From an uncultured delta proteobacterium (GTDB lineage: Bacteria; Myxococcota; Myxococcia; Myxococcales; Myxococcaceae): a stretch of DNA of 64,000 nt. Both the position numbers and the translations under genes were made by a program. The stretch lies in assembly GCA_963776345.1 (NCBI GenBank), contig CAVZMH010000018.1, positions 133,704 to 197,703 of the forward strand, in the 5' to 3' direction. The notes below the pieces were generated by a model. It was given only the letters and a program-made list of their open reading frames with translations, searched no databases and was not told where the DNA came from. This document shows positions 43,929-64,000 of the stretch, one piece after another. The number at the start of each line of letters is the position of its first letter. Position 1 is the stretch's first letter.

Positions 43929-44127
43929 GGATGACCAGGCATACGCCCGCGACCTGGGCAGGCGGCTGCTCGTGCAGTCAGCCCGTGGAACCTTGCAGCC
44001 AGGCCTCCGGCGTCCGCGCTGCGGGAGGCTCGGTGCTACAGTCCGGACACCCGCCACTCGCGGTCGAAGCCGTCGAGGAAATCCGTGGCCTTGACCAGCG
44101 CGCATGACGCTCGACGTGGGCCATGAG

Positions 44128-47100: not shown

Positions 47101-47389
47101 CGCTGGTGGGATGCGGAGCTCCATCGCCTGCGCGCGGAGCTGCTTGCTCGCGGGCGGCGCGGAGGCGGCCGAGGCGGAAGCCGCCCTGAGGCGCGCGCTG
47201 GAGATCGCCCGGGGACAGCAGGCGAAGTCGCTGGAGCTGCGCGCCGCCCGGGCCCTGGCCCGCATCTTGGCGGGATCGGGCCGGACCGCCGAGGCTCGAG
47301 ATCTGCTCGCGCCCGTGTGTGCCTGGTTCACGGAGGGTCTCGAAACCCCGGATCTGGTGGTCGCCCGGGCCCTGCTCTCCCAGCTCTAA
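44128..47389 (+). CDS. SARP/BTAD transcriptional activator with AAA ATPase and TPR region; frameshift near 47150
   Basis: [48 protein letters not shown] (BTAD), [45 protein letters not shown]. Confidence 0.88.
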
Positions 47390-47429
47390 CGCTCATCCTA
47401 ACGCCGCCCTAACGCCCGGGGCGTAGCAG
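47386..47429 (+). promoter_or_regulatory. SARP-type operator/promoter: three CTAACGC heptamers followed by a -10-like element
   Basis: CTAACGC at 47386, 47398 and 47409 (12/11-bp period); TAGCAG begins 8 nt after the last repeat. Confidence 0.7.
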
Positions 47430-47478
47430 TGGGGCCGTCTCCGCAAGGGAGGCTCTTTCTGAACGCGTGGGAGGAACG

Positions 47479-48852
47479 ATGAACCAGACGGACATCCAGG
47501 AACTGCGGGCGAAGTTTCGCGGCGAGCTGATCACCCCGAGTGACGCGGGCTACGACACCGCTCGCAAGGTCTACAACGGCATGATCGACAAGCGCCCCGC
47601 GCTGATCGCGAGGTGCGTGGACGCGGCGGACGTCATCGCGGGCGTGAGCTTCGCCCGGGAGAAGAAGCTGCTCCTCGCGGTGCGCGGCGGTGGGCACAAC
47701 GGCCCGGGGCTCGGGATCTGCGACGGGGGGCTGGTGGTCGACCTGTCGCGGATGAAGGGGATCCGGGTGGACCAGAAGGCCCAGACGGTGCGGGTCGAGG
47801 GGGGGTGCCTCTGGGGCGACGTGGACCACGCCACCCACCCGTTCGGCCTGGCGGTGCCCAGCGGCTTCCTCTCCACCACCGGTGTGGGCGGCCTGACCCT
47901 AGGCGGTGGGATCGGCTACCTCAGCCGCAAGTACGGCCTGACCATCGACAACCTCATCGGCGTGGACGTGGTGCTCGCCGACGGCCGGCTGGTCACGGCC
48001 AGCGCGGAGGAGAACGCGGATCTCTTCTGGGCGGTGCGCGGCGGCGGTGGGAACTTCGGGGTCGTGACCTCGTTCCTCTTCCGCGCCGGCCCGGTCAGCA
48101 CCGTCTACGGCGGGCCGATCTTCTGGCCGATGGAGAAGGCAGGGGAGGTGCTCCGCTTCTGGCGGGACTTCATCCTCAAGGCTCCCGAGGACATCAATGG
48201 CTGGTTCGGCTTCGCCACGGTGCCCCCCGTCCCGATGTTCCCGGCCGAGCACCACGGGAAGAAGGTGGCCATGGTCACCTGGTGCTACACCGGCGACATG
48301 GCGAAGGCGGAAGAGGCGTTCAAGCCCATCCGGAAGTTCTCGCCGCCGCTGATGGACTTCGCCGGGCCGATCCCGTTCCCGGTGCTGCAGAGCCTCTTCG
48401 ACGGGCTCTATCCGGCGGGCCTGCAGTGGTACTGGAAGGCCGACTTCTTCCAGGAGCTGAGCGACAAGGCCATCGACCTCCACGTGAAGTACGGGGAGCG
48501 GCTCCCCACCGGTCACTCCACCATGCACCTCTACCCGATCAACGGCGCCGCGCAGCGGGCGAAGAAGGGAGACACGGCCTTCAGCTTCCGCGAGGCGAAC
48601 TTCGCGGAGGTCATCGTGGGGGTCGATCCCGATCCGGCGAACAACCCGCGCCTCATTCAGTGGGCCAAGGACTACTGGCTGGCCATGCATCCCCACTCGT
48701 CGGGCGGCGGATACATCAACATGATGATGGACGAGGGCGAGGACAACGTGAAGGCCGCGTACCGCGACAACTACGCGCGCCTCGCCCAGGTGAAGAAGAA
48801 GTACGACCCGAACAACCTCTTCCGGGTCAACCAGAACATCAAGCCCGGGTAA
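47479..48852 (+). CDS. FAD-binding oxidoreductase with BBE domain (VAO/PCMH family)
   Basis: AVRGGGHN (covalent-FAD His), TTGVGGLTLGGGIG, DLFWAVRGGGGNFGVVT, KYDPNNLFRVNQNI. Confidence 0.92.
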   Translation: MNQTDIQELRAKFRGELITPSDAGYDTARKVYNGMIDKRPALIARCVDAADVIAGVSFAREKKLLLAVRGGGHNGPGLGICDGGLVVDLSRMKGIRVDQKAQTVRVEGGCLWGDVDHATHPFGLAVPSGFLSTTGVGGLTLGGGIGYLSRKYGLTIDNLIGVDVVLADGRLVTASAEENADLFWAVRGGGGNFGVVTSFLFRAGPVSTVYGGPIFWPMEKAGEVLRFWRDFILKAPEDINGWFGFATVPPVPMFPAEHHGKKVAMVTWCYTGDMAKAEEAFKPIRKFSPPLMDFAGPIPFPVLQSLFDGLYPAGLQWYWKADFFQELSDKAIDLHVKYGERLPTGHSTMHLYPINGAAQRAKKGDTAFSFREANFAEVIVGVDPDPANNPRLIQWAKDYWLAMHPHSSGGGYINMMMDEGEDNVKAAYRDNYARLAQVKKKYDPNNLFRVNQNIKPG

Positions 48853-48939
48853 TCGCGCTTGCCAGTGCTGGGGCTGGCCTTGTTGCCGGGATTCGTTGCC
48901 GGGATTCGCGCCAGCGCCCGTTCCCGGTTCGGTCCCGGA

Positions 48940-49089
48940 TCAGACGGTACGACCGGTGACCAGCCTCACGACCACCACCACCAAGGCGATCACCAGGAGC
49001 AGATGGATGAGGCCGCCACCCACGTGCATCGTGAAGCCCAGCAGCCAGAGAACCACGAGAAGAACGACCAGACCCCAGAGCAGATTCAT
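48940..49089 (-). CDS. Small membrane protein, lmo0937 (DUF5670)-like, 49 aa
   Basis: MNLLWGLVVLLVVLWLLGFTMHVGGGLIHLLLVIALVVVVVRLVTGRTV; below the ORF-track cutoff. Confidence 0.85.
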   Translation of the reverse strand: MNLLWGLVVLLVVLWLLGFTMHVGGGLIHLLLVIALVVVVVRLVTGRTV

Positions 49090-49230
49090 GGACAAACCCC
49101 CTGCCTATTCGCCACGACCTCGTCGCTCGCGCGCTCGCGCCGGTTGACTCCGAAGCGTGAGCGGGACACTTTCACTCGAGAGTCGCCATAGCATCACCCC
49201 ACCACCGCTACCAGTAGAACGAGTCACCCC

Positions 49231-49248
49231 GCGGCGGGGACCCGCCGC
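49231..49248. terminator. GC hairpin downstream of the 49309-49674 gene
   Basis: GCGGCGGG-GA-CCCGCCGC inverted repeat; no clear U-tract. Confidence 0.4.
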
Positions 49249-49308
49249 ACCGCTGTGCTGCTCAGCGGTCGAGCAGCGGGTGCCCTGACGTGAAGAGCGG
49301 ACCGAGTG

Positions 49309-49674
49309 CTACTTCGTACCGCTGGTGCTCTGCTCGCTGCTGATCACGTTGCCCTGGGCGTCCTTGGTGACCTTCTTCTTGGCGGTGTGCTTCTTGTCGT
49401 GCTTCGTCCCCGGCGCATCGTGCTTGTCGGTGTGCTCGGTGGTGGCGGTGGTCGTGCCATCGGCGTTCTTCTTCACCGAGGTGTCGGTCGTGTGCTCGTC
49501 GGTCCGGGCGTTGGCCGGTCCAGATGGATCCACCGTCTTCTTGACGTCGACGGACGATTCGGTGCTCCCAGGAGCGGTCTTGGTCTCCTTGGTGGTCTCG
49601 GTCTTCACCGTGGACTGCTGGGCCAGCGCAACCATCGGGAAGGCAAGGGCAAGGGTCAGCACGTAGGAACGCAT
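49309..49674 (-). CDS. Secreted hydrophilic Thr/Lys-rich protein
   Basis: AAGGAG RBS, signal peptide (ALA-QQ), low-complexity T/K/E body. Confidence 0.8.
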   Translation of the reverse strand: MRSYVLTLALAFPMVALAQQSTVKTETTKETKTAPGSTESSVDVKKTVDPSGPANARTDEHTTDTSVKKNADGTTTATTEHTDKHDAPGTKHDKKHTAKKKVTKDAQGNVISSEQSTSGTK

Positions 49675-49711
49675 GGGTATCTCCTTTCGAGAGATCGACT
49701 GCTTGGTTGAA

Positions 49712-49739
49712 AGCTAGGAACGAACGACGGGAGCGCAAG
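49712..49739 (-). promoter_or_regulatory. Putative RpoH-type promoter CTTG-N17-CCTAGCT
   Basis: Minus strand CTTG cgctcccgtcgttcgtt CCTAGCT upstream of ATG 49674; a similar element lies at 51866-51894. Confidence 0.5.
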
Positions 49740-49751
49740 CCCCGGCGAGGG

Positions 49752-50009
49752 CTAGCCGTCCAGCGTCCAGCTCTGTGACTCGTCGAAGGCCTCGACGATC
49801 TCGAAATCGTCGTCTTCCTCACCCGGTGCGCCCGCAGTCTCGAGCAGCCGCCGCAGGTGATGGAAGCATTGACGGTGAAGGCGCAGGCAGAGCCGCAGTC
49901 CAACACGGACACCGACCGGAGCCTCCTGGTGGGCGCGACGTAGACCTTCCACCACGCCGAGCTCCTCCTGCAGGAGAAGCTCGAGCTGTTGCGCGATCGG
50001 GAATGCCAT
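49752..50009 (-). CDS. Hypothetical protein, 85 aa
   Basis: MAFPIAQQLELLLQEELG...; starts 10 nt after the ymgE-like stop on the same strand. Confidence 0.55.
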   Translation of the reverse strand: MAFPIAQQLELLLQEELGVVEGLRRAHQEAPVGVRVGLRLCLRLHRQCFHHLRRLLETAGAPGEEDDDFEIVEAFDESQSWTLDG

Positions 50010-50019
50010 GGGTGCGCGG

Positions 50020-50292
50020 CTAGACCGGCAGCTGACGTCGGTCGACGAGGTGGTAGACGCCGAGCACAATCAGCGCTCCAGCGACGCTGCCGATGATGCC
50101 CGTAGGCTGGAGGTCGGAGGTGTTTGCGCTGTTGTCATGAAGGATCACGTTGATGAGGAAGCCGCCGACGAAGGAGCCGACGACCCCCAGGCCGATGGTC
50201 AGGATCCACCCCATCGAGTCCTTGCCCGGCATGATGGCCCGAGCGATGAGGCCAGCAATGAGTCCAACGACAATCATCGAGAAGATGCCCAT
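50020..50292 (-). CDS. GlsB/YeaQ/YmgE family stress membrane protein
   Basis: IVVGLIAGLIARAIMPG, TIGLGVVGSFVGG, IIGSVAGALIVL; AGGAG RBS. Confidence 0.9.
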   Translation of the reverse strand: MGIFSMIVVGLIAGLIARAIMPGKDSMGWILTIGLGVVGSFVGGFLINVILHDNSANTSDLQPTGIIGSVAGALIVLGVYHLVDRRQLPV

Positions 50293-50326
50293 GGTCTGCT
50301 CCTGTGGTTGAAGAGGAACGAACAGC

Positions 50327-50830
50327 TCAGGCGTGCACTCCATCGAATTCCACGGGCATCGGCTGCTCTTCCTCTGCCGTGTCCAGCGTCCGGCGCAGGT
50401 CGTTGGTACCCACCAACTGGTCGAAGCGGGCCTTCATCAGTTCGCCGAGTGCCTGCAGCTCGGCCGCTTTCATCTGCTTCTCCACCTTGGGGAAGAGGTC
50501 GCTTTCCTCCTCCTCGACGTGGTGCCGGATCATCTCCCTGAGCGTGGTCACGCGGGCAGCAAAGCTCTCGTTCTCCGGCTTGGTACGAAGTAGCCGCTCC
50601 ATCCCGAACTGCGTCGCTGCGTGCTCCTCGAACGACTCGAGCACCAGGTCCGGCTTGATCTCTTTGACCGCCGGGTAGAACAGCTCCTGCTCGATGACCA
50701 TGTGGGCGCTGAGGCTGGCGACGAGCTCCTGCACTCGCGCCTGAGCGTTCGTTGCTCGCCCCTTCTCGAGTTCCCCAAAGATCTTCGCCGCGGCGCGGTG
50801 CTGGCTCTTCAGAAGTTGCGTGGCCTTCAT
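50327..50830 (-). CDS. Hemerythrin (HHE) domain protein
   Basis: LLKSQHR, LSAHMVIEQELFYPAV, SFEEH, HHVEEEESDLFP. Confidence 0.9.
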   Translation of the reverse strand: MKATQLLKSQHRAAAKIFGELEKGRATNAQARVQELVASLSAHMVIEQELFYPAVKEIKPDLVLESFEEHAATQFGMERLLRTKPENESFAARVTTLREMIRHHVEEEESDLFPKVEKQMKAAELQALGELMKARFDQLVGTNDLRRTLDTAEEEQPMPVEFDGVHA

Positions 50831-50874
50831 GGCATTCTCCGTGGCGCACGGGATCGTGCGGGCGACCCGAGTGG

Positions 50875-50890
50875 TGCAAGCACCGGGCCG
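50875..50890 (-). promoter_or_regulatory. Putative sigma-54 promoter of the hemerythrin-ymgE operon
   Basis: Minus strand CGGCCCGGTGCTTGCA = GG-N10-GC. Confidence 0.65.
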
Positions 50891-50946
50891 ATGACCGGGA
50901 CCGCTGATTTGCGGCATGGGGACACCTGAACGAACACCGGGGCCAC

Positions 50947-50980
50947 GTGTCAGTTCGTCACGGGTGAGGCGAACTGCCAC
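50947..50980. promoter_or_regulatory. Tandem enhancer-like palindromes (19-bp period)
   Basis: GTGTCAGTTCGTCAC-gggt-GAGGCGAACTGCCAC. Confidence 0.6.
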
Positions 50981-51066
50981 GTGCGGAACCTGACCAGGTC
51001 TTCGCTCGCCCGCCGTCGACCGAGGGCCGCGCTTGCGATGCCCGCGCCTTGGCCATTCTCCGGCGG

Positions 51067-51282
51067 TTACCTGGAAGGACGCTTGCGGCGAGGCACCCGG
51101 ATGCCTGCCTTCCGGGCTTTGGCGAGGCCCACGGCGATCGCCTGCTTCCGCGTCATCCGCCCGTGTTTGCCGGAACGCTTGTGATGCATTTCCTCGCGGA
51201 CGAACGCGCCGGCCTGGGTGGACGGCTTGTCTCCTCGCCGCCTGGCAGCCGCTGCCCGCCGTCTGGTTGCTTTCTCTGGCAT
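51067..51282 (-). CDS. Small basic protein, DUF6496-like
   Basis: KPSTQAGAFVREEMHH, KQAIAVGLAKARKAG. Confidence 0.8.
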   Translation of the reverse strand: MPEKATRRRAAAARRRGDKPSTQAGAFVREEMHHKRSGKHGRMTRKQAIAVGLAKARKAGIRVPRRKRPSR

Positions 51283-51292
51283 GAGGACCTCT

Positions 51293-51823
51293 TCACATCG
51301 GTTCGGAGAAGCGCGTACGAAGAACGGGGACCAGCGAAAGGGTGAGTCCGAAGAGCAGGTGCATGGCAAGCCAGGACCCGGCCATCCCGCTCACTGCCGC
51401 CCGCAGCGGTGGATTGGCCAGGGGAAGGACGGCGAGCGTCATCACCGCCATCACCAGCAGGGCGTAGCCAAGGGCGAGCAGCAACGTCAGCCCGGCAGAC
51501 CGGGTGTAGGGAACCAGCGCCGCGAACAGCAATCCCAGCGCCGCCGCCAGGAGCAGATGCATCGTTGCCCCTCCGACGATGGTCGCGTTTCCCGGGTCCA
51601 GGGGGAGTCGATCCAAAGGCAAAGGAGCACCGAGCATCCGGAGCGGCGTGGTCCACTCGACTCCCCGGAGCAGGGCTCGGCCCACCATCCACAGGGCCAT
51701 CGCGCCGCCGCCGAGCAACCCCGCGGTCGCCCCTGCCTTCAGCGCCGGACCGATCGTCCCCGGCCAGACGCGGACCCCCTGATCGGCGAAGCGAATCTGC
51801 CCCCCGGGATTGGTTTCGAGCAT
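51293..51823 (-). CDS. Four-TM membrane protein
   Basis: AGGAG RBS; AGATAGLLGGGAM, MHLLLAAALGLLFA, LAMHLLFGLTL. Confidence 0.75.
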   Translation of the reverse strand: MLETNPGGQIRFADQGVRVWPGTIGPALKAGATAGLLGGGAMALWMVGRALLRGVEWTTPLRMLGAPLPLDRLPLDPGNATIVGGATMHLLLAAALGLLFAALVPYTRSAGLTLLLALGYALLVMAVMTLAVLPLANPPLRAAVSGMAGSWLAMHLLFGLTLSLVPVLRTRFSEPM

Positions 51824-51865
51824 TGGAGACTCCTGAACAGGGCTGGGCTCAACGTGGTGCTCAAA

Positions 51866-51894
51866 AGCTGGGATCTCCGTCCGGGCGGCGCAAG
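51866..51894 (-). promoter_or_regulatory. Putative RpoH-type promoter CTTG-N18-CCCAGCT
   Basis: Minus strand CTTG cgccgcccggacggagat CCCAGCT upstream of ATG 51823. Confidence 0.45.
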
Positions 51895-51939
51895 ACCCGT
51901 AACGTGAAACAGGTGACAGCGGCCGACGTTGGCGAGCGC

Positions 51940-51973
51940 TGGAGGGCTGGCCCCTTGTGGGGCAATCCGCCAC
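51940..51973. promoter_or_regulatory. Tandem enhancer-like palindromes (19-bp period)
   Basis: TGGAGGGCTGGCCCC-ttgt-GGGGCAATCCGCCAC (first copy degenerate); a further copy GTGACAGCTCGCAAC near 51989. Confidence 0.5.
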
Positions 51974-52055
51974 GGCGCTCGATTCGTTGTGACAGCTCGC
52001 AACGCCGGACGACCCTAGTGCCGGTCCATCTCCGGAGAATGACGCCGTAACGTCA

Positions 52056-52071
52056 GGGCACGAAACCTGCT
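52056..52071 (+). promoter_or_regulatory. Putative sigma-54 promoter of the operon ending in the sigma-54 activator
   Basis: GGGCACGAAACCTGCT = GG-N10-GC with GGCACG. Confidence 0.65.
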
Positions 52072-52105
52072 CTGACCATGCGGGGAGAACGCACGGAGGG
52101 CTCTC

Positions 52106-52315
52106 ATGTCCGGCTCGAAGCGTCGCAGTGCTTTCGTCAAGAGGCAGTCCCGGGTCAGCAGAAACACGGCAGCTGCATCGGTGCGGACCACCCTGGGTGA
52201 ACTGATCGTCGCCGCCTTCGACATCGTCGGCAATCGAGTGCCAGACGTGGCCCAGCTCCTGGCCTCCCCGGAGCTGGGACGCGCAGCACACGGGCGGATC
52301 GTCCTTGTCCGGTGA
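52106..52315 (+). CDS. Small hypothetical protein
   Basis: GGAGG RBS; basic N-terminus, VRTTLGELIVAAFD...VAQLLASPEL...RIVLV. Confidence 0.7.
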   Translation: MSGSKRRSAFVKRQSRVSRNTAAASVRTTLGELIVAAFDIVGNRVPDVAQLLASPELGRAAHGRIVLVR

Positions 52316-52620
52316 TCCGGATGCTCCCTCCACGCACCTCCCGGCACGAGACGCGAGCAACTGTTCCCGCCTCCGAGGATGACGTCGTCGAACGAGCGGC
52401 TGAGGTGTTCGTCCAACGGCTCGAGCGCCTCGTCGAGCAGGGTCTGCCGCTGGTCGATGCTCGCCGGGTCGCGCTGGTGGTCGCCCTGGCGAGCATCGCC
52501 CACGAGCCGGACTCCGATCGATTGGCGCCGCTCATCCAGGCAGCACTGACTGGCCCGGGTCGCCATCGCGGAGATTGTTCTCACCAGTCGGGTCTGCTAC
52601 TCGCGTTCAGGCGTGGGTGA
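52312..52620 (+). CDS. Hypothetical protein
   Basis: GTGA overlap with the upstream gene; fills the gap to the activator gene. Confidence 0.5.
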   Translation: MIRMLPPRTSRHETRATVPASEDDVVERAAEVFVQRLERLVEQGLPLVDARRVALVVALASIAHEPDSDRLAPLIQAALTGPGRHRGDCSHQSGLLLAFRRG

Positions 52621-52630
52621 CGAGAAGCGC

Positions 52631-54022
52631 ATGAGCGGGCGATTGCTGGTCGTCGACGACGACCGCGAGACCTGTGATCTACTCCGGGAGATCCTCGAGC
52701 ACGCCGGCTACCAAGTCACCGCGCTCATCTCGGCCCGGGAGGCCCTGACGCGGGTCGTGGCCGACGACTTCGACGCCGTGCTCACCGACCTGGGAATGGC
52801 GGAGATGAACGGCATCGATCTCTGCCGTCGCATCCTCGAGGCGCGGCCGGACATGCCGGTCATCGTCGGGACCGGCCAGGGCAGCATGGAGACCGCCATC
52901 GCTGCGATGCGCGCCGGCGCCTACGACTTCGTCACCAAGCCGTTCGATCCGAAGCTGCTGGTACTCACGCTCGCCCGCGGCGTGCAGCACCACCGGCTGC
53001 GGAGCGAGCTGAAGCGCCTGCAGCGCGACATCGCCTCCCGGACGGCCCCGGGATTGATTGGTCAGTCCGCCGGAATGCAACGGGTGCTGGAACTGGTGGG
53101 GCGGGTGGCTGACTCCGAGACCTCGGTCCTCATCCAGGGCGAGACCGGGACCGGCAAGGAGCTGGTCGCCCGGCTCATTCACCGCAGCGGCAAGCGACGC
53201 GACGGCCCGTTCGTGGCGGTGAACTGCGCCGCCGTCCCGCATGCGCTCATCGAGAGCGAGCTCTTCGGCCACGCGCGCGGTGCCTTCACCGATGCACGGA
53301 CCCAGCGCACCGGACTGTTCCTGGAGGCCAGCGGCGGCACCCTGTTCTTGGACGAGGTCGGTGAGCTGCCGCTCGAAACCCAGCCCAAGCTGCTGCGCGC
53401 GCTCCAGGAACGCACGGTGCGCCCGGTTGGCTCCAACAGCGAGCAGCCATTCGACGTTCGCCTCGTGGCGGCCACCAACCGGGACTTGGAGTTCGAGGTC
53501 TTCGAGAAGCGCTTCCGCGAGGACCTCTACTACCGCATCAACGTGGTGACGGTGGAGCTTCCCCCGCTTCGCAACCGCGGCACCGACGTTCTGGCACTGA
53601 CCCAGCACTTCCTGGGCAGATTCGCCGAGCGCGCCGGGCGGGCGCCGCTCACCATCGCTCCTTCCACCGCGGAGAAGCTGCTCGCCTATGCCTGGCCAGG
53701 CAACGTCCGCGAGCTGGAGAACTGCCTCGAGCGGGGGGTGACCCTGGCCCGCTTCGACCAGCTCACGGTGGATGATCTCCCGGACAAGATCCGCAACTTC
53801 AAGGCGGAGAGTTTCGTGGTCGCTGCCGACGACCCGACGGAGGTGGTGACGCTCGAGGAGCTGGAGCGGCGCTACATCGTGCGCGTGCTCTCGCTGGTGG
53901 GCGGAAACAAGTCGCAGGCGGCGCAGATGCTCGGTGTCGACCGCAGGACGCTGTACCGCAAGCTGGCGCGCTACCAGGGTACCGCGAGCCCTGAGGGCGA
54001 GGCCGATGCGGACCAGGGCTGA
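52631..54022 (+). CDS. Sigma-54-dependent response regulator (REC, AAA+, Fis HTH; NtrC/ZraR family)
   Basis: LLVVDDD, GETGTGKELVA, ESELFGHARGAFTDA, GGTLFLDEVGE, FREDLYYRINV, WPGNVRELEN, GGNKSQAAQMLGVDRRTLYRKL. Confidence 0.95.
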   Translation: MSGRLLVVDDDRETCDLLREILEHAGYQVTALISAREALTRVVADDFDAVLTDLGMAEMNGIDLCRRILEARPDMPVIVGTGQGSMETAIAAMRAGAYDFVTKPFDPKLLVLTLARGVQHHRLRSELKRLQRDIASRTAPGLIGQSAGMQRVLELVGRVADSETSVLIQGETGTGKELVARLIHRSGKRRDGPFVAVNCAAVPHALIESELFGHARGAFTDARTQRTGLFLEASGGTLFLDEVGELPLETQPKLLRALQERTVRPVGSNSEQPFDVRLVAATNRDLEFEVFEKRFREDLYYRINVVTVELPPLRNRGTDVLALTQHFLGRFAERAGRAPLTIAPSTAEKLLAYAWPGNVRELENCLERGVTLARFDQLTVDDLPDKIRNFKAESFVVAADDPTEVVTLEELERRYIVRVLSLVGGNKSQAAQMLGVDRRTLYRKLARYQGTASPEGEADADQG

Positions 54023-54049
54023 CTTACGGCCGGGTTGAAGCGGGCGAGT

Positions 54050-54083
54050 GTGCCGAACGGCCCCGGGCGGGACATTCCGCACC
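54050..54083. promoter_or_regulatory. Tandem enhancer-like palindromes (19-bp period)
   Basis: GTGCCGAACGGCCCC-gggc-GGGACATTCCGCACC. Confidence 0.55.
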
Positions 54084-54123
54084 GGTCGAAGCTCGCAAGT
54101 CCCTGATCTCGACCCTGCGGCGA

Positions 54124-54139
54124 CGGCACCCGACTTGCT
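54124..54139 (+). promoter_or_regulatory. Putative sigma-54 promoter of csbD
   Basis: CGGCACCCGACTTGCT, near consensus; IHF-like GATCAgggacTTG on the minus strand near 54096-54108. Confidence 0.75.
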
Positions 54140-54182
54140 TGAGCCGGGTAATCGTCAACCCGTCACCCAAGAGGATCAGCTC

Positions 54183-54431
54183 ATGAACTGGCAACAGGTC
54201 GAGGGGCAGTGGAAACAAGTGAAGGCGCAGGCAAAGTCGAAGTGGGCCAAGCTCACCGACGACGACCTGCGAAATCTCGAGGCGAAGAAGGACTCCATCG
54301 TCGGCAAGCTGCAGGAGCGATACGGCCTGATGAAGGACGAGGCCGAGCGGCAGGTCGACTCGTTCATCGACGCCCTCACGCCGGATCGCACCTCCACCTC
54401 CGCGCAGAGCGAGCGCTCGACCAAGCGCTGA
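54183..54431 (+). CDS. csbD: CsbD/YjbJ family stress protein
   Basis: MNWQQVEGQWKQVKAQAKSKWAKLTDDDL...VGKLQERYG. Confidence 0.9.
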   Translation: MNWQQVEGQWKQVKAQAKSKWAKLTDDDLRNLEAKKDSIVGKLQERYGLMKDEAERQVDSFIDALTPDRTSTSAQSERSTKR

Positions 54432-54495
54432 GCTGCCGGGCACTCGGCGCGAACGCCCGCGGAGCAGCGCTCACCGCGGGCGTTGGTGCGTCCGG

Positions 54496-56145
54496 TCAGG
54501 CGCGCGGTAGGCAGAAGCCAACGGTGGTCCCCTTGCCCGGTGCGCTCTTCACCCGGATCTCGCCGCCATGAGCATCGACGATGCCCTTGGCGATGAACAG
54601 CCCCAGGCCTGCACCGCCGTCCCGCGCCGCAGACCCCTTCCAGTAGCGCTCGAAGAGGTGGTCGAGGTGCTCGGATGGGATTCCCGGACCATTGTCGGTG
54701 ACGGAGAAACAGATCCGTGCGCCTTCTGCTGCGACGGAGAGTCGGATCGTTCCTCCGTCACGGGGTACGAACTTCAGCGCGTTTCCCATCAGGTTGGAGA
54801 GCAGCTGGAGCACCCGATCGCGGTCGGCCTGAACCACCAGCGACGGGTCCACTGCTCCCGTCTCGACCCGCGTACCCTGGCTCTCCGCCAGCGGCAGCGC
54901 CGACTCGACGGCATCGACGATCAGCGTTCCGGCCCTCTCCGGCTTGAGAGTGACCGGGAGCTTCCCGGAATCGACTCGCGAGGCGTCGAGGAGGTCCTCG
55001 ATCAGCCGGTTCATCCGGGTGACGTTTTGCTCGATGCGCTGGACCAGGGGCAGCGCACCGGGGGGAGCTCCGTCGGGACCCTCGGAGAGCGTATTGCGGA
55101 GCATCGACGCGCTCATTGCCACCACGTTGAGCGGGTTCCGGAGGTCGTGGGAGACGATGGCCAGAACATCGTCCCGGGTGGTGGTGGCATCCTGGGCGGC
55201 GCGGTAGAGCCGACCGTTCTCCAGCGCCACCGACGCCGTCTGTGCAAGCTGTACCAGGATCGCCTCGTCGCTGGCGTCGAAGTCCCCCTCCTCGCGGTCG
55301 GTGAGCTGGAGCGTCCCCAGCGCCTTGCCATCGCTCCCCACCAGCGGAGCGGCGAGCAGCCCGCGCACCGTCACCCCCTCGAAGCGCCTGGAACAGGCTG
55401 CCGTCCAGGCCGGGTTCGCCTCCAGCTCGGTCTGGTTGAAGCGGACGCTCTTGCGCGATTCTCGCACCAGCGCTGCCCAGCGGAGGTCCGCCTCGTCGAT
55501 GGGCATGCCGCTGTACGGCCGGTACTTCCTCGACAGTGCCCTGCGCTCCACCGCCGTCCTGCCCGCACCGCCGTCCAGCTGTGCCACCGCCACGTTCGCG
55601 CCGATCAGCTCTCGGGCGGTCTGGCTGATGTGATCCAGCGCCTCGTCCAGCGTCTGAGCGCCGTGGATGCCGACGCTCGCCTCCGCGAGGCGCTGGAGTT
55701 GCTCCGCTTGGCGCTGCAGCATCCTCCGCGCGTCCCGCGTCCGCCGGTCCGCGTCACGCAGTCGCAGAGCCTGGCGGATGCTCTGGGTCAGCCGTCCCGG
55801 GGTGAGCGTACCCTTGGGCAGGTAGTCGGCCGCTCCGGCCTTCATCAGCTCCACCGCCAGGGCCTCGTCGCCCGCGCCGGTGAGCATGATGATCGGCGTG
55901 TCGACGTTCTGGTGACGCACCTCCTGGAGGATCTCCAGCCCGTCGCCTCCGGGGAGCTGGAAGTCGAGGAGGGCGACGTCGATGCGGCTGTTTCCCAGGA
56001 GAGCCTCGCGAGCGCCGGCAAAGTCGATCGCCTCCGTGACCTGGGCGGGCAGGCCGGCGCTGCGGAGCGCCCGCTGCACCGCGGCACGGTCCACCTCGTC
56101 GTCGTCGACGAGGAGAACGGCGAGGCGGTCACCCTGGACGGTCAT
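54496..56145 (-). CDS. Hybrid sensor kinase (REC, GAF, HisKA, HATPase)
   Basis: LLVDDDEVD receiver, GLLAAPLV...FDASDEAIL GAF, SHDLRNPL, NLMGNALKF, DNGPGI, GAGLGL. Confidence 0.92.
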   Translation of the reverse strand: MTVQGDRLAVLLVDDDEVDRAAVQRALRSAGLPAQVTEAIDFAGAREALLGNSRIDVALLDFQLPGGDGLEILQEVRHQNVDTPIIMLTGAGDEALAVELMKAGAADYLPKGTLTPGRLTQSIRQALRLRDADRRTRDARRMLQRQAEQLQRLAEASVGIHGAQTLDEALDHISQTARELIGANVAVAQLDGGAGRTAVERRALSRKYRPYSGMPIDEADLRWAALVRESRKSVRFNQTELEANPAWTAACSRRFEGVTVRGLLAAPLVGSDGKALGTLQLTDREEGDFDASDEAILVQLAQTASVALENGRLYRAAQDATTTRDDVLAIVSHDLRNPLNVVAMSASMLRNTLSEGPDGAPPGALPLVQRIEQNVTRMNRLIEDLLDASRVDSGKLPVTLKPERAGTLIVDAVESALPLAESQGTRVETGAVDPSLVVQADRDRVLQLLSNLMGNALKFVPRDGGTIRLSVAAEGARICFSVTDNGPGIPSEHLDHLFERYWKGSAARDGGAGLGLFIAKGIVDAHGGEIRVKSAPGKGTTVGFCLPRA

Positions 56146-56558
56146 GGCATCTCCGCGCGGGTCCAGTAGCCTTTCAGGGCGCCCATCAGCTCGACGAAAT
56201 CGGTGAAGGTGGTGGGCTTGAGAAGGTAGCCGGCGACGTTCATCTCGAACGCCTCCGCCTTGTCGCGCTCGTCATTGGAGGTGGTGAGAACCACCACCGG
56301 AATCCTGCGCAGCGAGGGATCGCTGCGCAGCTCGTGCAGCAGCTCGATTCCGTTCATCCGCGGGAGGTTCAGATCGAGCAGGATGAGCAGCCGCTCCGCC
56401 GGTGTGGTTCCGCTGCGGAGCAACTCCAGCGCCTCGACGCCGTCAGCCGCGCGCACCACCGGGTCGGTGATGTTCGCCCTCTCGAAGGCGCGGCTGACGT
56501 TCATCACGTCGACGTCGTCATCCTCGACGAGCATGATGTTCAGCGGCCGGGCGACCAT
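56142..56558 (-). CDS. Single-domain response regulator, Rcp1-like
   Basis: MLVEDDDVD, ILLDLNLPRMNGIE, IPVVVLTTSNDERD, YLLKP, YW near the C-terminus. Confidence 0.92.
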   Translation of the reverse strand: MVARPLNIMLVEDDDVDVMNVSRAFERANITDPVVRAADGVEALELLRSGTTPAERLLILLDLNLPRMNGIELLHELRSDPSLRRIPVVVLTTSNDERDKAEAFEMNVAGYLLKPTTFTDFVELMGALKGYWTRAEMP

Positions 56559-58114
56559 CACGATCGTGTCCGCATCTTGGGCCAGGTGAAGCGGAAGGTC
56601 GCGCCCTGGCCCACCTGAGACTCTACCCAGACCCGGCCACCTTCCGTCTCCACCAGCTTCTTGACCGTGGCCAGGCCGATCCCGGTTCCCTCCACCCGAT
56701 CGCGAGAGGCGAGCGTCTGGAAGATGCCGAAGATGCGCTGCTGGTACTGCGGAGCGATACCCGGCCCGTTGTCCGCGACCTGGAACTCCCACTCGCCCCC
56801 CCGGTCCTGCGCGCGAACGCGCACCTCCGCACCGTCGCGCCGGGCATGCTTCAACGCATTGCCGAGCAGATTCATCCAGATCTGCTGGAACGGGGCGCGC
56901 TCGGCACGCAGCCGGGGCAGCTCCTGCCCCACATCGACCCGCACCGCGCCGGGCTGCGGGGCGAGGAGCTCGAGCACGTCGCGCACCAGCTGTCCCACGT
57001 CGATCTCCTCGCGCTCTCCGCCCGACTTGCCGACGCGGGCGTAGGCCAGGATTCCGTCGATGAGTGACTCCATCCTGCGCACCCGACTGAGCAGGACCCG
57101 GATGTGCTCACGGGACCGCTCGGGCATCGCCCCACCCACGTCCTCCTCCACCCACTGGGCGAGGTTGGCGATGCCCCGCAGCGGGGCCTTGAGATCGTGC
57201 GAGGCCACGTAGGCGAACTGGTTCAACTCGCGGTTGCTTCGCTCCAGAGCCACGTTGGCGGCGTTGCGCTCGGCGAGCGCGGTTTCGGCAGCGGCGCTGG
57301 CTGCGGCCAGCCGGTCGCTCAGGCTCCGCTCTGCATCCAGCTGGTGGGCCAGCTTGCGCTCGCTCTCCTCGAGACTGCTGCGCTGCGCCTCCAGCCGTGC
57401 CGCCTGCTCTTCGAGAAGCGCCTGGTTCCTCCGCTGGATGGTGACGTCGTGTCGGATCCCCACGTTGACCAGCACGGCGAGCAGGATGGCGATCACGCTG
57501 CCGGCGGCGATGACCCAGGTGGTGTAGGTGACGATCCGGTCACGCTCGCTCGTCCGCGTCACGAGGAGATCCCGCTCGCTATCGATCATCTCGTCGACCG
57601 CTCGGCGTGCGGCGTCCATCGTCTCCCGCCCGTGGCCGGTGAGGATCGCCGCTCGCGCGGTTTCCGGCCCAAGCCTCTCGAACGCCGACACCGTGTCCTC
57701 CAGCTGCTTCAGCTTCGCCTCTGCAGCGGAGCGCACGCCCTTCGCGCGTTGACGCTGCAGCTGGTTGTCACCCACCAGATCGTCGAGCATGCCCAGCAGC
57801 GCGTGGACGCGTCGGCCGGCGGCCCGGTAGGTGTCGAGGTACCGCTCGTTGTGCGTGATCAGGTAGGCCCGCTCCTCGGTCTCGGCGTCGACCAGCGCGA
57901 GCTCCGTGCGTTGCAGCGTGTCGATCAACTCGCGGTTGTGCGTCACCCAGTTCTGCGTCTCCCGGACTCCCTCGATTCCGCGGAAGGCGAGCACCGCCAC
58001 CACCAGGACGAGCATCGGCGAGAGCAGCGCCGCGAGCACCTTCCGCTCGAGCGGGCGTGAGACGGAGAGCACCTCTTCGAGAGCGCCGCGCAGCGCGCGG
58101 ACGGCGCTCGCCAT
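56558..58114 (-). CDS. CHASE3-domain sensor histidine kinase
   Basis: TM, WVTH...LVDAETEERAYLIT...YLDTY (CHASE3), TM; ELNQFAYVASHDLKAPLRGI, NLLGNALKH, GTGIGLA. Confidence 0.92.
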   Translation of the reverse strand: MASAVRALRGALEEVLSVSRPLERKVLAALLSPMLVLVVAVLAFRGIEGVRETQNWVTHNRELIDTLQRTELALVDAETEERAYLITHNERYLDTYRAAGRRVHALLGMLDDLVGDNQLQRQRAKGVRSAAEAKLKQLEDTVSAFERLGPETARAAILTGHGRETMDAARRAVDEMIDSERDLLVTRTSERDRIVTYTTWVIAAGSVIAILLAVLVNVGIRHDVTIQRRNQALLEEQAARLEAQRSSLEESERKLAHQLDAERSLSDRLAAASAAAETALAERNAANVALERSNRELNQFAYVASHDLKAPLRGIANLAQWVEEDVGGAMPERSREHIRVLLSRVRRMESLIDGILAYARVGKSGGEREEIDVGQLVRDVLELLAPQPGAVRVDVGQELPRLRAERAPFQQIWMNLLGNALKHARRDGAEVRVRAQDRGGEWEFQVADNGPGIAPQYQQRIFGIFQTLASRDRVEGTGIGLATVKKLVETEGGRVWVESQVGQGATFRFTWPKMRTRS

Positions 58115-58162
58115 CCTCACCTTCCAGCCCACAGCGCGGCTCCTCTCGATCTCGACCATCTG

Positions 58163-58178
58163 TGCAATCCACGTTCCC
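58163..58178 (-). promoter_or_regulatory. Putative sigma-54 promoter of the CHASE3 kinase operon
   Basis: Minus strand GGGAACGTGGATTGCA = GG-N10-GC with TTGCA. Confidence 0.6.
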
Positions 58179-58219
58179 GCTACAGAGGAGGAATTGCGCG
58201 GGGATGAATCGACCCTCGC

Positions 58220-58253
58220 GCACCAGCGTGCCACAACCGGGGCAATCTGCCCC
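58220..58253. promoter_or_regulatory. Tandem enhancer-like palindromes (19-bp period) centred between divergent sigma-54 promoters
   Basis: GCACCAGCGTGCCAC-aacc-GGGGCAATCTGCCCC (second copy a perfect 6-3-6 palindrome). Confidence 0.65.
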
Positions 58254-58298
58254 ATCCGCCGGGGTGTCACGAATCAGGAATCCAGCTTACTTCGGTGG

Positions 58299-58314
58299 CG
58301 GCACGCATCTGGCA
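58299..58314 (+). promoter_or_regulatory. Putative sigma-54 promoter of the sigma-32-family gene
   Basis: CGGCACGCATCTGGCA = GG-N10-GC with GGCACG. Confidence 0.6.
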
Positions 58315-58329
58315 CTGACCGACCGTGCC

Positions 58330-59205
58330 ATGGAATTCGAAAAGACCGACGTCCGAGGGGACAACGAGGAGCGGCTGCTTCGTCGGTATCTGACCGAGGT
58401 CGGGCGGCACAAGTTGCTGACCGTGGAGGAGGAACGCACGCTCTGCCGTGCCTTCCGCCAGGGGGACAAGGAGGCGGGCCGGATACTGGTCGCATCCAAT
58501 CTCCGCTTCGCCATCAAGGTCGCACGGTCCTACCGCGCCCCCGGGTTCTCGCTCACCGATCTGATTCAGGAGGCATCGCTTGGCCTGATGAAGGCGGTGG
58601 AGCGCTTCGATCCGGAGCGCGGCGTCCGGCTCATCAGCTTCGCGGTGTGGTGGATCCGCGCCCAGCTCCAGCGCTACGTGCTCCACAACTGGTCGCTGGT
58701 CAAGCTCGGTACCACCCAGGCCCAGCGACGCGTCTTCTTCGGTCTGGGCAGGGCCCTGCGCGCCACCGACGCCCACAACAGCGATGCCGAGGACCAGACG
58801 CTTGAGCTCTCCCGTCTTCTCCAGGTCGACCCGGTCGAGCTGCGCGAGACCCGTCAGCGGATGACGTCACGCGACGTCTCGCTCGACGCCCCGCTGAGCG
58901 ACGAATCGACCACCCCCCGGAGCGCCACCCTGGCGGCAGTCATTCCGGCGCCGGACGAGGAGGCTGCGGCGCAGGAGTGGACCGGACAGGTGCGCTCGGC
59001 CGTCGACCGGGCGCTGCGCATCCTCGATCCGCGCGAGCGCTTCATTGCGGAGCGGCGCCTGCTCCAGGACGATCCGCCCACCCTCTCCTCGGTGGCCGCG
59101 CACTTCGGCTTCTCCCGCGAGCGCGCGCGTCAGCTCGAGCTCCGGGCGCGCACCAAGCTGCGCGCTGCCCTCGCTCCCCTCGCTGAGACCGAGTTCGCCG
59201 CCTGA
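58330..59205 (+). CDS. RNA polymerase sigma factor, sigma-32 (RpoH) family
   Basis: LVASNLRFAIKVA, DLIQEASLGLMKAVERFDPERGVRLISFAVWWIRA, RpoH-box-like NWSLVKLGTTQAQRRVFF, FSRERARQLE. Confidence 0.92.
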   Translation: MEFEKTDVRGDNEERLLRRYLTEVGRHKLLTVEEERTLCRAFRQGDKEAGRILVASNLRFAIKVARSYRAPGFSLTDLIQEASLGLMKAVERFDPERGVRLISFAVWWIRAQLQRYVLHNWSLVKLGTTQAQRRVFFGLGRALRATDAHNSDAEDQTLELSRLLQVDPVELRETRQRMTSRDVSLDAPLSDESTTPRSATLAAVIPAPDEEAAAQEWTGQVRSAVDRALRILDPRERFIAERRLLQDDPPTLSSVAAHFGFSRERARQLELRARTKLRAALAPLAETEFAA

Positions 59206-59241
59206 AAGCAGCTGTCCCAACAAGTCACAAGGAGAAGTGCC

Positions 59242-59403
59242 ATGCTCTACTGGGCCGCAGTTTTCTTCGTCATCGCCTTGATCGCGGCGGTGTTCGGCTT
59301 CGGCGGCATCGCGGCCAGCGCCGCCGGCGTCGCGAAGATCCTCTTCTTCGTCTTCCTCGTCATCGCCGCCGTCTCGCTCCTCCTGGGCCGCAGGCCAGGT
59401 TGA
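59242..59403 (+). CDS. DUF1328 (YtjA/UPF0391) small membrane protein, 53 aa
   Basis: [62 protein letters not shown]; not in the ORF track. Confidence 0.92.
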
Positions 59404-59706
59404 ACGGGACACCTTCCCATGACCAGCCAGACCCGGGCGCCTGGCGGTCTGCATCAAGGCGCTCGTTGCCCAGGCGAGGGGCGGACCCATCGCACCTTAT
59501 CGAGAGGTGGCAGGACCTCACCCCGAAGGTCGGCCGATCCGGGATCCTCTCACGACTCGCGCCGCGGAAGCACCTTGGCTACGGGCACTCGAGCGTAAGG
59601 TAGCCGTCCGGCCAACGGCGTCGTGACCGCGTGAAAGGGCCAAGGCGGCCGGCAACGCAGCGCGCGCTCGGCCTCCCCTTGCATGCCGCCAGTCCGTGCG
59701 CTACAT

Positions 59707-59726
59707 ACTGAACCAAATGGTTCAGT
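59707..59726. promoter_or_regulatory. ArsR-type operator overlapping the start codon
   Basis: ACTGAACCA-AA-TGGTTCAGT perfect 9-2-9 palindrome. Confidence 0.75.
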
Positions 59727-60082
59727 CTTACCATGCCCGCCTCGATGCCTCGTTCTCCGCGCTCTCGGACGCGACCCGGCGCGGCGTTCTGGAGCAGCTC
59801 GGCCGTGCAGATGCTTCCATCACGGACCTTGCCGAGAAATTCCACATGACCCTCACGGGCATGAAGAAGCACGTCGGCGTCTTGGAGCAGGCCGGGCTCG
59901 TCGCCACGGAGAAGGTCGGGCGCGTGCGGACCTGCAAGCTCGGCCCGCGCCGACTGGAGCAAGAGACGGCTTGGATCGAGGGGTACCGCCAGCTCTGGGC
60001 TTCACGCTTCGACGAGTTGGACACGGTTGTCGAGGAACTGAAACGGAAGGAGAAGGTCGATGGACGCAAGAAGAGAGAGTGA
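59717..60082 (+). CDS. ArsR/SmtB family transcriptional regulator
   Basis: FSALSDATRRGVLEQL, MTLTGMKKHVGVLEQAGLV, KVGRVRTC. Confidence 0.9.
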   Translation: MVQSYHARLDASFSALSDATRRGVLEQLGRADASITDLAEKFHMTLTGMKKHVGVLEQAGLVATEKVGRVRTCKLGPRRLEQETAWIEGYRQLWASRFDELDTVVEELKRKEKVDGRKKRE

Positions 60083-60569
60083 GCCCAACTCCGTCAAGAA
60101 CCACACGACGGCGGAACGGAAGTCCGAGCGGGAGCTGGTCGTCTCGCGAACCTTCAACGCCCCGGCGCGCATCGTGTTCGAGGCGTGGACCAAGCCCGAG
60201 CTGCTCATGCGGTGGTGGGCACCGAAGTCATTTGGCGTGTCCTTCCTCTCGTGCGAGGCCGATGTTCGTGTGGGGGGCACGTACCGTTTCGTGTTCGCCC
60301 ACCCTGCCTCAACGCAGCCGATGGAGTTCTTCGGTAGGTACATCGAAGTGTCACCGCACTCGCGCCTCGTCTGGACGAATGACGAAGGTGGTGACGGTGG
60401 GGCCGTCACCACGGTGACCTTCGATGAGAAAGGCGGCAAGACGCTGCTCGTCATGCATGACCTCTATCCCTCGAAGGAAGCTCTCGACGGTGCCATCGCC
60501 TCCGGGAGTACTAATGGGGGGGAGACGTTCGAGCAACTGGACGAGCTTCTCGTCGCCCTGGGAGCGTAA
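60060..60569 (+). CDS. SRPBCC (AHA1/START-like) domain protein
   Basis: ELVVSRTFNAPARIVFEAWTKPELLMRWW, DVRVGGTYR, RLVWT. Confidence 0.9.
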   Translation: MDARRESEPNSVKNHTTAERKSERELVVSRTFNAPARIVFEAWTKPELLMRWWAPKSFGVSFLSCEADVRVGGTYRFVFAHPASTQPMEFFGRYIEVSPHSRLVWTNDEGGDGGAVTTVTFDEKGGKTLLVMHDLYPSKEALDGAIASGSTNGGETFEQLDELLVALGA

Positions 60570-61020
60570 CGGACTCGACGCCTACCAGGGGAGGCCGAAA
60601 CCCCTCCCTCACTAACACCAGCTACTCGCCCTCGTCCTCCAGACGCCAAATCGTCGGGATTTTTCCCGGCGGCGAGCATGCTCCGCTCCTTTAAGAACTG
60701 CGAGACCGCGGTCCTCGCATTCTCGGGAATCGGGCCTTGGTCCTGAAGTCGCTGCCGGCGGTTGAGACCGCCGGATCAAGCCCAGTTGCCCACGGACGAA
60801 GTCCGCGCGCTCGCTGCCGGCGACGGGCCGGTTGGTCCATCCTTGGTCCAAGCGGCGGAGGAGGGGAGCGAAGGGGCCGGGCCGACGGAGGCAAAACCCC
60901 GTTGCAGCCTGGGTTGTTGCAGAAGCGTGGAGTACGGGACTTGAAGACGTCTACGGCTGTCCGTCGGCCGCAGTCGAGGAACACTCCTCCGGCGTGAACT
61001 CGGCCACGACGCGGCTCCGC

Positions 61021-63528: not shown

Positions 63529-64000
63529 GGTCCGGGACCTTACACGGCCATCCACTCAGGTTTCATCGCTCGGCTCGGCCGGAACCACGGGGGGTGGGTT
63601 CACGGGGGCGGCGGTCGACGCCGGCCCGCGCCCCGGGGAAGCCTCTGCGTGTGGCCGTCCCCGCGCGGGCGTGGCCGGGACTCCGCGCAGAGGCTGTGCG
63701 ACGAGAGGATCGGGAGGTTGGTCATCGGGGCCAGAGGATCCGCAGCGCGGGGCGGAGGAGGCCGCCTGGGCTTCTCGCCTGAGAAGCGCTCCCCCGACCC
63801 GCACGAGCTCAGGCTGCCCCGGGTGCCTCGAAACGACGAGACTGCGTCGACCGCGCCCGCTTCGCGCTGAAGCTCGAGCACCGGGCCTCCATGTGGACGG
63901 GACCAGGCCCAACGAGAGCGCGATCAGCCAGGAGTCGTGGCGTCTCCGTGGCGTGACTTCGGAGCGCCTCGGAAACCCGCAGCAACCTCAACGACTTGGA

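Follow-up and report, generated by a model that had tools for sequence, protein, structure and literature searches.

A candidate paired enhancer and small sigma-54 regulon of an Nla7-clade activator in a Myxococcaceae genome

The closest described relatives of the locus reported here are regulatory systems of Myxococcus xanthus. HK0938 and Nla7 (0938/0937) pair with biochemical specificity (PMC3892784), a DO protease is encoded by MXAN0934 (PMC3222651), and an nla7 mutant is reported to aggregate and sporulate normally on its own, yet to be over-represented among the spores of mixed populations (bioRxiv 10.64898/2026.08.28.747804). The NmpRSTU system (PMC11841059) and the Nla28 regulon (PMC9765219) are further sigma-54 systems with repeated activator sites, and the CsbD (YjbJ), DUF1328 (YtjA) and YmgE families have been tabulated as sigma-S-controlled small proteins in Salmonella (PMC5437024). 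We analysed a window, meaning one whole 64,000-nucleotide stretch, from an uncultured member of the Myxococcaceae (GCA_963776345.1, contig CAVZMH010000018.1, positions 133,704 to 197,703), in which a first-pass annotation had proposed that five sigma-54 promoters are served by one tandem palindrome motif and by a local NtrC-type activator (52631..54022, + strand). The paired 15-bp elements probably are the enhancer through which this activator would turn on the sigma-54 promoters of a sigma-32-like factor and of predicted general-stress genes, the stress label being taken from the Salmonella table and from family names. On this comparative evidence the enhancer and its small sigma-54 regulon, of the known NtrC-type kind, are real and apparently undescribed.

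All five GG-N10-GC boxes that had been claimed were present, each with two mismatches from TGGCACG-N4-TTGC, a consensus taken from PMC9765219, and they make up five of the 13 such boxes in the 64-kb window. They are located before the hemerythrin operon (50876..50890, - strand), orf69-orf102-activator (52056..52070, +), csbD (54124..54138, +), the CHASE3 kinase operon (58164..58178, -, a possible box) and the sigma-32-like gene (58299..58313, +). The four paired 15-mers (15+4+15) were likewise found where proposed. The pair at 50947..50980 has its strong half at 50966-50980 and lies 56 nt from the hemerythrin box, and the pair at 51940..51973 has its strong half at 51959-51973 and a doubtful distal half (51940-51954), 82 nt from box 52056. 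The pair at 54050..54083 is degenerate and lies 40 nt from the csbD box, while the pair at 58220..58253 contains the genome's best half-site (58239-58253) and, within 58220-58234, only a conserved inner GCCAC. Site-to-box distances of 40-82 nt agree with the roughly 40-85 bp proposed. A close strain carries an 8-nt deletion spanning the start of 51940, among the 40 of 125 differences listed. The fixed 19-bp period did not survive comparison, as relatives have 19 or 20 (19 and eight pairs, respectively, at loci of the activator's clade, and four and three of seven orthologous sigma-32 promoters).

The four arrays were the top four 19-bp pairs in the window, a circular result as the motif was drawn from them, and non-circular tests were therefore applied. 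With leave-one-out matrices the held-out arrays ranked 2, 7, 8 and 12 of 5,099,475 genome positions, training sites counted (genome 71.7% guanine plus cytosine, GC). A matrix of 21 half-sites from other genomes, with the refined consensus GGGGCA-N3-TGCCCC, placed 58220, 50947, 54050 and 51940 at ranks 1, 3, 14 and 32 of 5,099,451, its independence being partial since these half-sites were first found with the window matrix. Using the window-only matrix, pairs scoring at least 16 were located at 19 of 55 clade activator loci (1.03 Mb), 13 of them adjoining a box, versus none of 20 loci of other activators (0.40 Mb). The spacings counted at clade loci were 19 bp (19 pairs), 15 (nine), 17 (eight) and 20 (eight). 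A strict two-palindrome pattern was matched in 21 of 21 genomes of g13, 32 of 32 of g62 and one of 12 of the window's own genus, tallies that include the unpublished genome G158, on which no claim rests; there was no match in any of eight genomes of the syntenic genus g44 or in the window's own genome. The only two matches across genome G199 both flank its Nla7-type operon.

Boxes accompanied the pairs as well. Across 111 loci, 27 of 32 distinct pairs had a box at 15-125 nt against a background of about 1.3%, with 12 training pairs having been picked with a box, and 39 pair-box distances, many orthologous and 12 from training sites, cluster at 32-36, 41-47, 55-58 and 63-68 nt, in bands spaced by roughly one turn of the helix. 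Rayleigh p-values for this clustering are inflated by the orthologous promoters and are given no weight here. Five of eight remote pairs located by pattern alone had a phased box 32-56 nt off and three had none. By these comparisons the paired motif is not due to chance. A loose pattern of a single site plus a box matched at control level in 10 genomes and recovered no regulon. No further convincing pair with a box was located among the top 40 and top 30 matches elsewhere in the genome, so the regulon appears to be restricted to an island at 48900-59500.

The local activator (REC-AAA+-Fis) has the AAA+ domain, the GAFTGA-type loop, here GAFTDA, and the helix-turn-helix (HTH), with the recognition helix DRRTLYRKL. 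Homologues at E 1e-135 or better were found in 163 of 207 family genomes and in none of 12 own-genus genomes, most of which are incomplete assemblies. Seven of eight g44 genomes carry an 80% identical activator, and the gene order of activator, csbD, hybrid kinase, receiver, CHASE3 kinase, sigma-32-like gene and DUF1328 is kept in all seven. A first tree placed the activator in one clade with Myxococcus-type copies (FastTree 0.988). The same clade was recovered in a second tree (midpoint root, 45 rows chosen from 106 plus three homologues) with a support of 91 in the Shimodaira-Hasegawa-like approximate likelihood ratio test (SH-aLRT), the activator falling in a subclade apart from the Nla7-type proteins (96 vs 99 support); on these trees it is therefore a paralogue of Myxococcus Nla7 in a sister subclade. 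It was the sole clade member among 28 sigma-54 activators recovered from the genome. A homologue search of the genome contigs brought up so many generic activators, at 38-47% identity, that it was set aside. The GAFTDA loop occurs in 49 of 57 clade proteins and is listed among GAFTGA variants expected to remain active (PMC4641369). At least seven of the nine positions of the clade helix, D-R-R/K-T-L-Y-R-K-L, were matched in 56 of 57 clade proteins and in none of the 27 other activators of this genome. The proposal that the local activator serves the motif is thus favoured by a motif that follows the clade, by its helical phase with the boxes and by the single clade member available, all comparative evidence.

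The five promoters were unequal in support, with three appearing well supported, one plausibly autoregulatory and one doubtful; conservation favoured four of the five boxes, the exception being that of the CHASE3 operon. At the sigma-32-like promoter seven of seven g44 genomes retain the box, the palindrome and, of the second site, the inner half, at the period of 19 in four and 20 in three, and the 22 substituted intergenic positions across four close strains include none in the palindrome or the sigma-32 box. A single close orthologue of the hemerythrin gene (76% identity, in G141 on a contig other than that of its activator) keeps both sites and the box, and 14 of 29 hemerythrin homologue loci have a box. 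The csbD box is present in all seven syntenic relatives with two to three mismatches, and its enhancer is degenerate with conservation mainly in the left halves. At the comparative level, conserved promoters in relatives bear out the predicted control of three units, namely the sigma-32-like gene, csbD and the hemerythrin operon. Seven of seven other myxobacterial sigma-32-like genes (L333-L339, four genomes) had a sigma-54 box 55-99 nt upstream and lacked this motif, which suggests a general sigma-54-to-sigma-32 link driven by different activators. The sigma factor genes sigB and sigC are strongly induced during sporulation (PMC2875238).

The orf69 family had matches in 138 of 207 family genomes. 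A box similar to that at 52056 was located ahead of 20 of the 29 best homologues fetched from the 138 genomes with a match, including genomes without this activator. In g44 the four orf69 copies that lie close to the island all carry a motif site, and within the sequence read three of them have a box too; the activator of this genus is not behind orf69. The genome G000 carries a second copy of orf69 (C20:86145-86324), a member of an unannotated family that usually lies behind a sigma-54 box.

A sensor kinase, a receiver protein, a REC-kinase hybrid and an activator are located together in the locus and are syntenic in the seven relatives fetched. In the proposed mechanism the signal would enter at the CHASE3 sensor histidine kinase (56558..58114, -, with the start taken from alignment and ribosome-binding site, longer in-frame starts also existing) and pass to the single-domain response regulator (56142..56558, -, PF00072) and to the receiver of a REC-GAF-HisKA-HATPase hybrid kinase (54496..56145, -). 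Action of the CHASE3 kinase on two similar receivers upstream is inferred from NmpU-NmpT-NmpS-NmpR, and the hybrid kinase would phosphorylate the activator in the same manner. This hybrid, not the CHASE3 kinase, is the likelier direct kinase because of its H-box, which reads HDLRNPLNVV, that of the kinases adjoining Nla7-type activators being HELGTPLNVV and that of the CHASE3 kinase HDLKAPLRGI. A CHASE3-type H-box is also found beside clade activators at L164, L043 and L040, and hints for the order of sensor to hybrid to activator come only from H-box and receiver residues. Two activator dimers would bind the sites 19-20 bp apart, a strong palindrome anchoring the weaker neighbour, and once phosphorylated would oligomerise and open the sigma-54 promoters. 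The targets would be the sigma-32-like gene with DUF1328, csbD, the hemerythrin-YmgE operon and orf69.

Several observations weigh against this assignment. The proposed two palindromes per array held to the extent of one good 15-mer each (strong half-sites 20.3, 12.3, 11.0 and 8.0 with the other-genome matrix), and the partner half-sites in the window arrays were weak (2.4, 1.7, -3.6 and -6.0). Window distances of 56, 45 and 41 nt fall inside the phased bands, while 40 nt is at the edge and 82 nt outside. With the window-only matrix, 36 of the 55 clade loci, among them every one of the 10 from the other class, yielded no pair above threshold, and the related genomes and strains compared are not independent of one another, owing to kinship. 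At least seven clade helix residues also occur in three of 21 control activators, and motif-like single sites lie upstream of orf69 homologues at L266 and L268, in same-genus genomes where the activator was not found. In the seven closest syntenic relatives, of g44, the motif with a box is absent upstream of the activator, and so is the CHASE3 operon box at up to three mismatches. In addition, rpoN was not found in the assembly by TIGR02395, PF04963 or tblastn, the only RpoN-like trace being a 31-residue C-terminal-like tail at C19:255198-255290.

The first-pass annotation had the activator driving both itself and the CHASE3 kinase operon. The enhancer may be real with no feedback loop: sigma-70-family promoters would then serve the activator and the CHASE3 operon, and sigma-54 would act on the output genes alone (sigma-32-like, csbD, hemerythrin and orf69), an arrangement that is unlikely but deserves serious weight. 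The g44 activator genes share a TGTATGCCA element just upstream in seven of seven genomes, and in place of a good box the g44 CHASE3 operon has the element TG-N2-TA(C/G)T(C/G)T 47-49 nt from the palindrome, again in seven of seven. We take this element to resemble the -10 of a stress sigma factor. The orf69 box, moreover, also occurs in genomes without the activator. However, both g44 elements are degenerate in the window (the latter at 58184-58193), four close strains retain the CHASE3 box despite a single tolerated change, and the motif with a box is found upstream of the activator at the sister-clade loci L031 and L163 and at Nla7-type loci. Self-activation from 52056 requires read-through over two small open reading frames (ORFs), although orf69, orf102 and the activator lie close together and no terminator-like site separates them; a scan of the region for sigma-70 promoters and terminators gave nothing above shuffles. 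Self-activation by read-through of orf69-orf102 is plausible, with the balance slightly in its favour. Sigma-54 control of the CHASE3 operon is doubtful; if real, the box may be a lineage-specific replacement of a sigma-70-type promoter. As self-activation is the weaker case and the CHASE3 box the weakest, the full positive-feedback loop was not established.

The remaining alternatives concern what binds the sites and whether they function at all. Binding by another regulator, either another activator or a non-sigma-54 factor, with proximity resulting from the clustering of stress genes, is improbable. The genome has 27 other activators, one with the similar helix DRKTLYKLL, the motif-like sites occur in two genomes without the activator, and MXAN934 has been named a putative Nla28 target (PMC9765219), but the Nla28 half-site CT(C/G)CG(C/G)AG differs from the motif, the motif accompanies clade members with wholly different neighbours (DO protease and HAMP kinase vs stress genes), and the G199 matches flank the Nla7-type operon. 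The absence of rpoN would fit an island that is a silent relic in a lineage that lost sigma-54, which is very improbable. The assembly also lacks a syntenic block that spans 17 kb in G007 and contains genes read from their translations as LptB- and LptC-like; this block falls between the end region of contig C21 and the extreme end of contig C14. Since the syntenic neighbours are missing too, between these contig ends, an assembly gap is the likeliest cause. The assembly is rated 98% complete, with rpoN and its neighbours absent. Further, rpoN was matched in nine of 12 same-genus genomes, the 28 activators are retained, and loss of sigma-54 has been reported lethal in M. xanthus (PMC12316311); a genus-wide count of strict sigma-54 consensus sites gave too few to bear on whether rpoN was lost. 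An origin of the elements as small hairpins or as runs of G/C arising by chance, in DNA of 72% GC, is scarcely credible: loose single-site patterns do match at background level and the spacings of 15 and 17 have extra counts (nine and eight pairs), but the genome-wide ranks, control loci, reversed-pattern controls and phasing largely refute it. The enhancer of the local activator thus remains the probable reading of the sites.

Window ORFs were annotated by Pfam and NCBIfam profile searches, which in the island returned DUF5670, two ORFs of no family, a transglycosylase-associated protein, hemerythrin HHE, DUF6496, a membrane protein, orf69, orf102, the activator, CsbD, the hybrid kinase, the lone receiver, the CHASE3 kinase, the sigma-32-family factor and DUF1328. 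The transglycosylase-associated (YmgE-type) small membrane protein is encoded at 50020..50292 (-, PF04226) behind the first gene of the putative operon, a hemerythrin HHE-domain protein (50327..50830, -, PF01814) that resembles the PA2171 family below the cut-off. The conserved small protein orf69 (52106..52315, +, no Pfam/NCBIfam match) has a stop overlapped by the hypothetical orf102 (52312..52620, +, no family match), which ends 10 nt ahead of the activator. The CsbD-family protein is at 54183..54431 (+, PF05532). The sigma-32-family factor (58330..59205, +, PRK06596 above the cut-off) was the only one found in the assembly, and the DUF1328 (YtjA-type) small membrane protein (59242..59403, +, PF07043) lies downstream of the sigma gene in seven of seven relatives. 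An element AAAGCTAGG at 49710-49719, similar to that of the g44 CHASE3 operon, is located ahead of the gene at 49309-49674 and of its L157 homologue. Some 200 nt upstream of the orf69 homologues at L266 and L268, in the genomes where the activator was not found, there is a different conserved element, CCACCCCGTCGC..GGGAGAGGG, possibly the site of another activator. The island has 67.2% GC vs 71.7% genome-wide and was not found in the 12 same-genus genomes with this query, which, with the 80% identity to g44, suggests that it was possibly acquired horizontally. The flanks (44104-48852 and 59696-63555) include a 1102-residue regulator-like ORF ahead of a FAD/berberine-bridge oxidase, an HTH_20 and AHSA1 pair, and a Ser/Thr kinase with TPR repeats.

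The same motif leads to predictions for Nla7. Locus L165 has the order DO protease, receiver, 266-residue gene, activator and HAMP kinase, with a kinase and a protease that group with proteins of M. xanthus DK1622; from this and the published identities of MXAN0934 and HK0938/Nla7, L165 is taken to be the Nla7 locus (MXAN_0934-0938). Motif pairs are located there at 7491-7525 and 12393-12427, and the motif is predicted to be the binding site of Nla7. Predicted targets of the Nla7 clade are its own operon, the DO protease, the receiver gene and lineage-specific remote genes that encode a small membrane protein and a small secreted protein (L221, L230, L217, L227 and L224). In the literature searched, which had few subscription papers and not the first reports on nla mutants, neither this operator or regulon nor any Nla7 site or regulon was found described; within that search the proposal that the motif is not a described regulon stands, although the activator is a close paralogue of a named M. 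xanthus regulator. A wider interpretation is offered tentatively: in some Myxococcaceae a general stress response may be directed by a portable sigma-54 island in which a CHASE3-fed phosphorelay feeds a self-amplifying Nla7-clade activator that hands on to a sigma-32-like factor and a CsbD/DUF1328/YmgE/hemerythrin set (a sigma-S set elsewhere), the same operator marking an unrecognised Nla7 regulon (own operon, DO protease and receiver gene) in Myxococcus. The logic of an NtrC-type activator, paired palindromes and sigma-54 boxes is textbook, while the operator and regulon are new to the literature searched. For Nla7 they provide a candidate binding site and a list of putative targets in a model organism amenable to genetics, suggest that one DNA-recognition module is reused with different sensors and outputs, and point to a sigma-54-to-sigma-32 cascade over general-stress-type genes.

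Among the known systems, the sigma-S regulon (PMC5437024) shares three small-protein families with the island (YjbJ/CsbD, YtjA/DUF1328 and YmgE), each in a unit behind a predicted box, but here these are predicted to be under sigma-54 and the activator, not sigma-S. The Nla28 regulon (PMC9765219) is likewise that of a myxobacterial sigma-54 activator with tandem sites, its own promoter included, and its 8-bp direct repeats CT(C/G)CG(C/G)AG at variable spacing are not the island motif of 15-bp palindromes at 19-20 bp. NmpRSTU (PMC11841059) combines a sensor kinase, a stand-alone receiver, a REC-kinase hybrid and an NtrC-type activator, as does the island, with paired 15-bp inverted repeats near sigma-54 boxes and a small regulon including its own and the kinase operons. 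The NmpR operator, however, is GCGCA-N5-TGCGC with preferred gaps of 14-15 nt, whereas the island has another core and a gap of 4-5 nt; the sensor NmpU is a protoglobin protein where the island has CHASE3, and NmpT has two receivers vs one here. Identity with NmpR was rejected on motif and sensor, and the island, by analogy, is wired like NmpRSTU and is not a member of it. From Nla7/HK0938 it differs in that its activator lies in the separate subclade, with the adjacent co-directional HAMP kinase and DO protease context absent: Nla7-type loci have the adjacent HAMP kinase and two full palindromes, whereas the island has the CHASE3/receiver/hybrid relay, one-and-a-half sites and stress-type targets. 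Shared with Nla7 are the activator clade, 61% identity between the activator and the L165 protein, the GAFTDA loop, a near-identical helix and the GGGGCA-N3-TGCCCC pairs, found ahead of the Nla7-type operon and in the interval from the DO protease gene to the receiver gene, so that motif and helix are held in common at the level of the clade.

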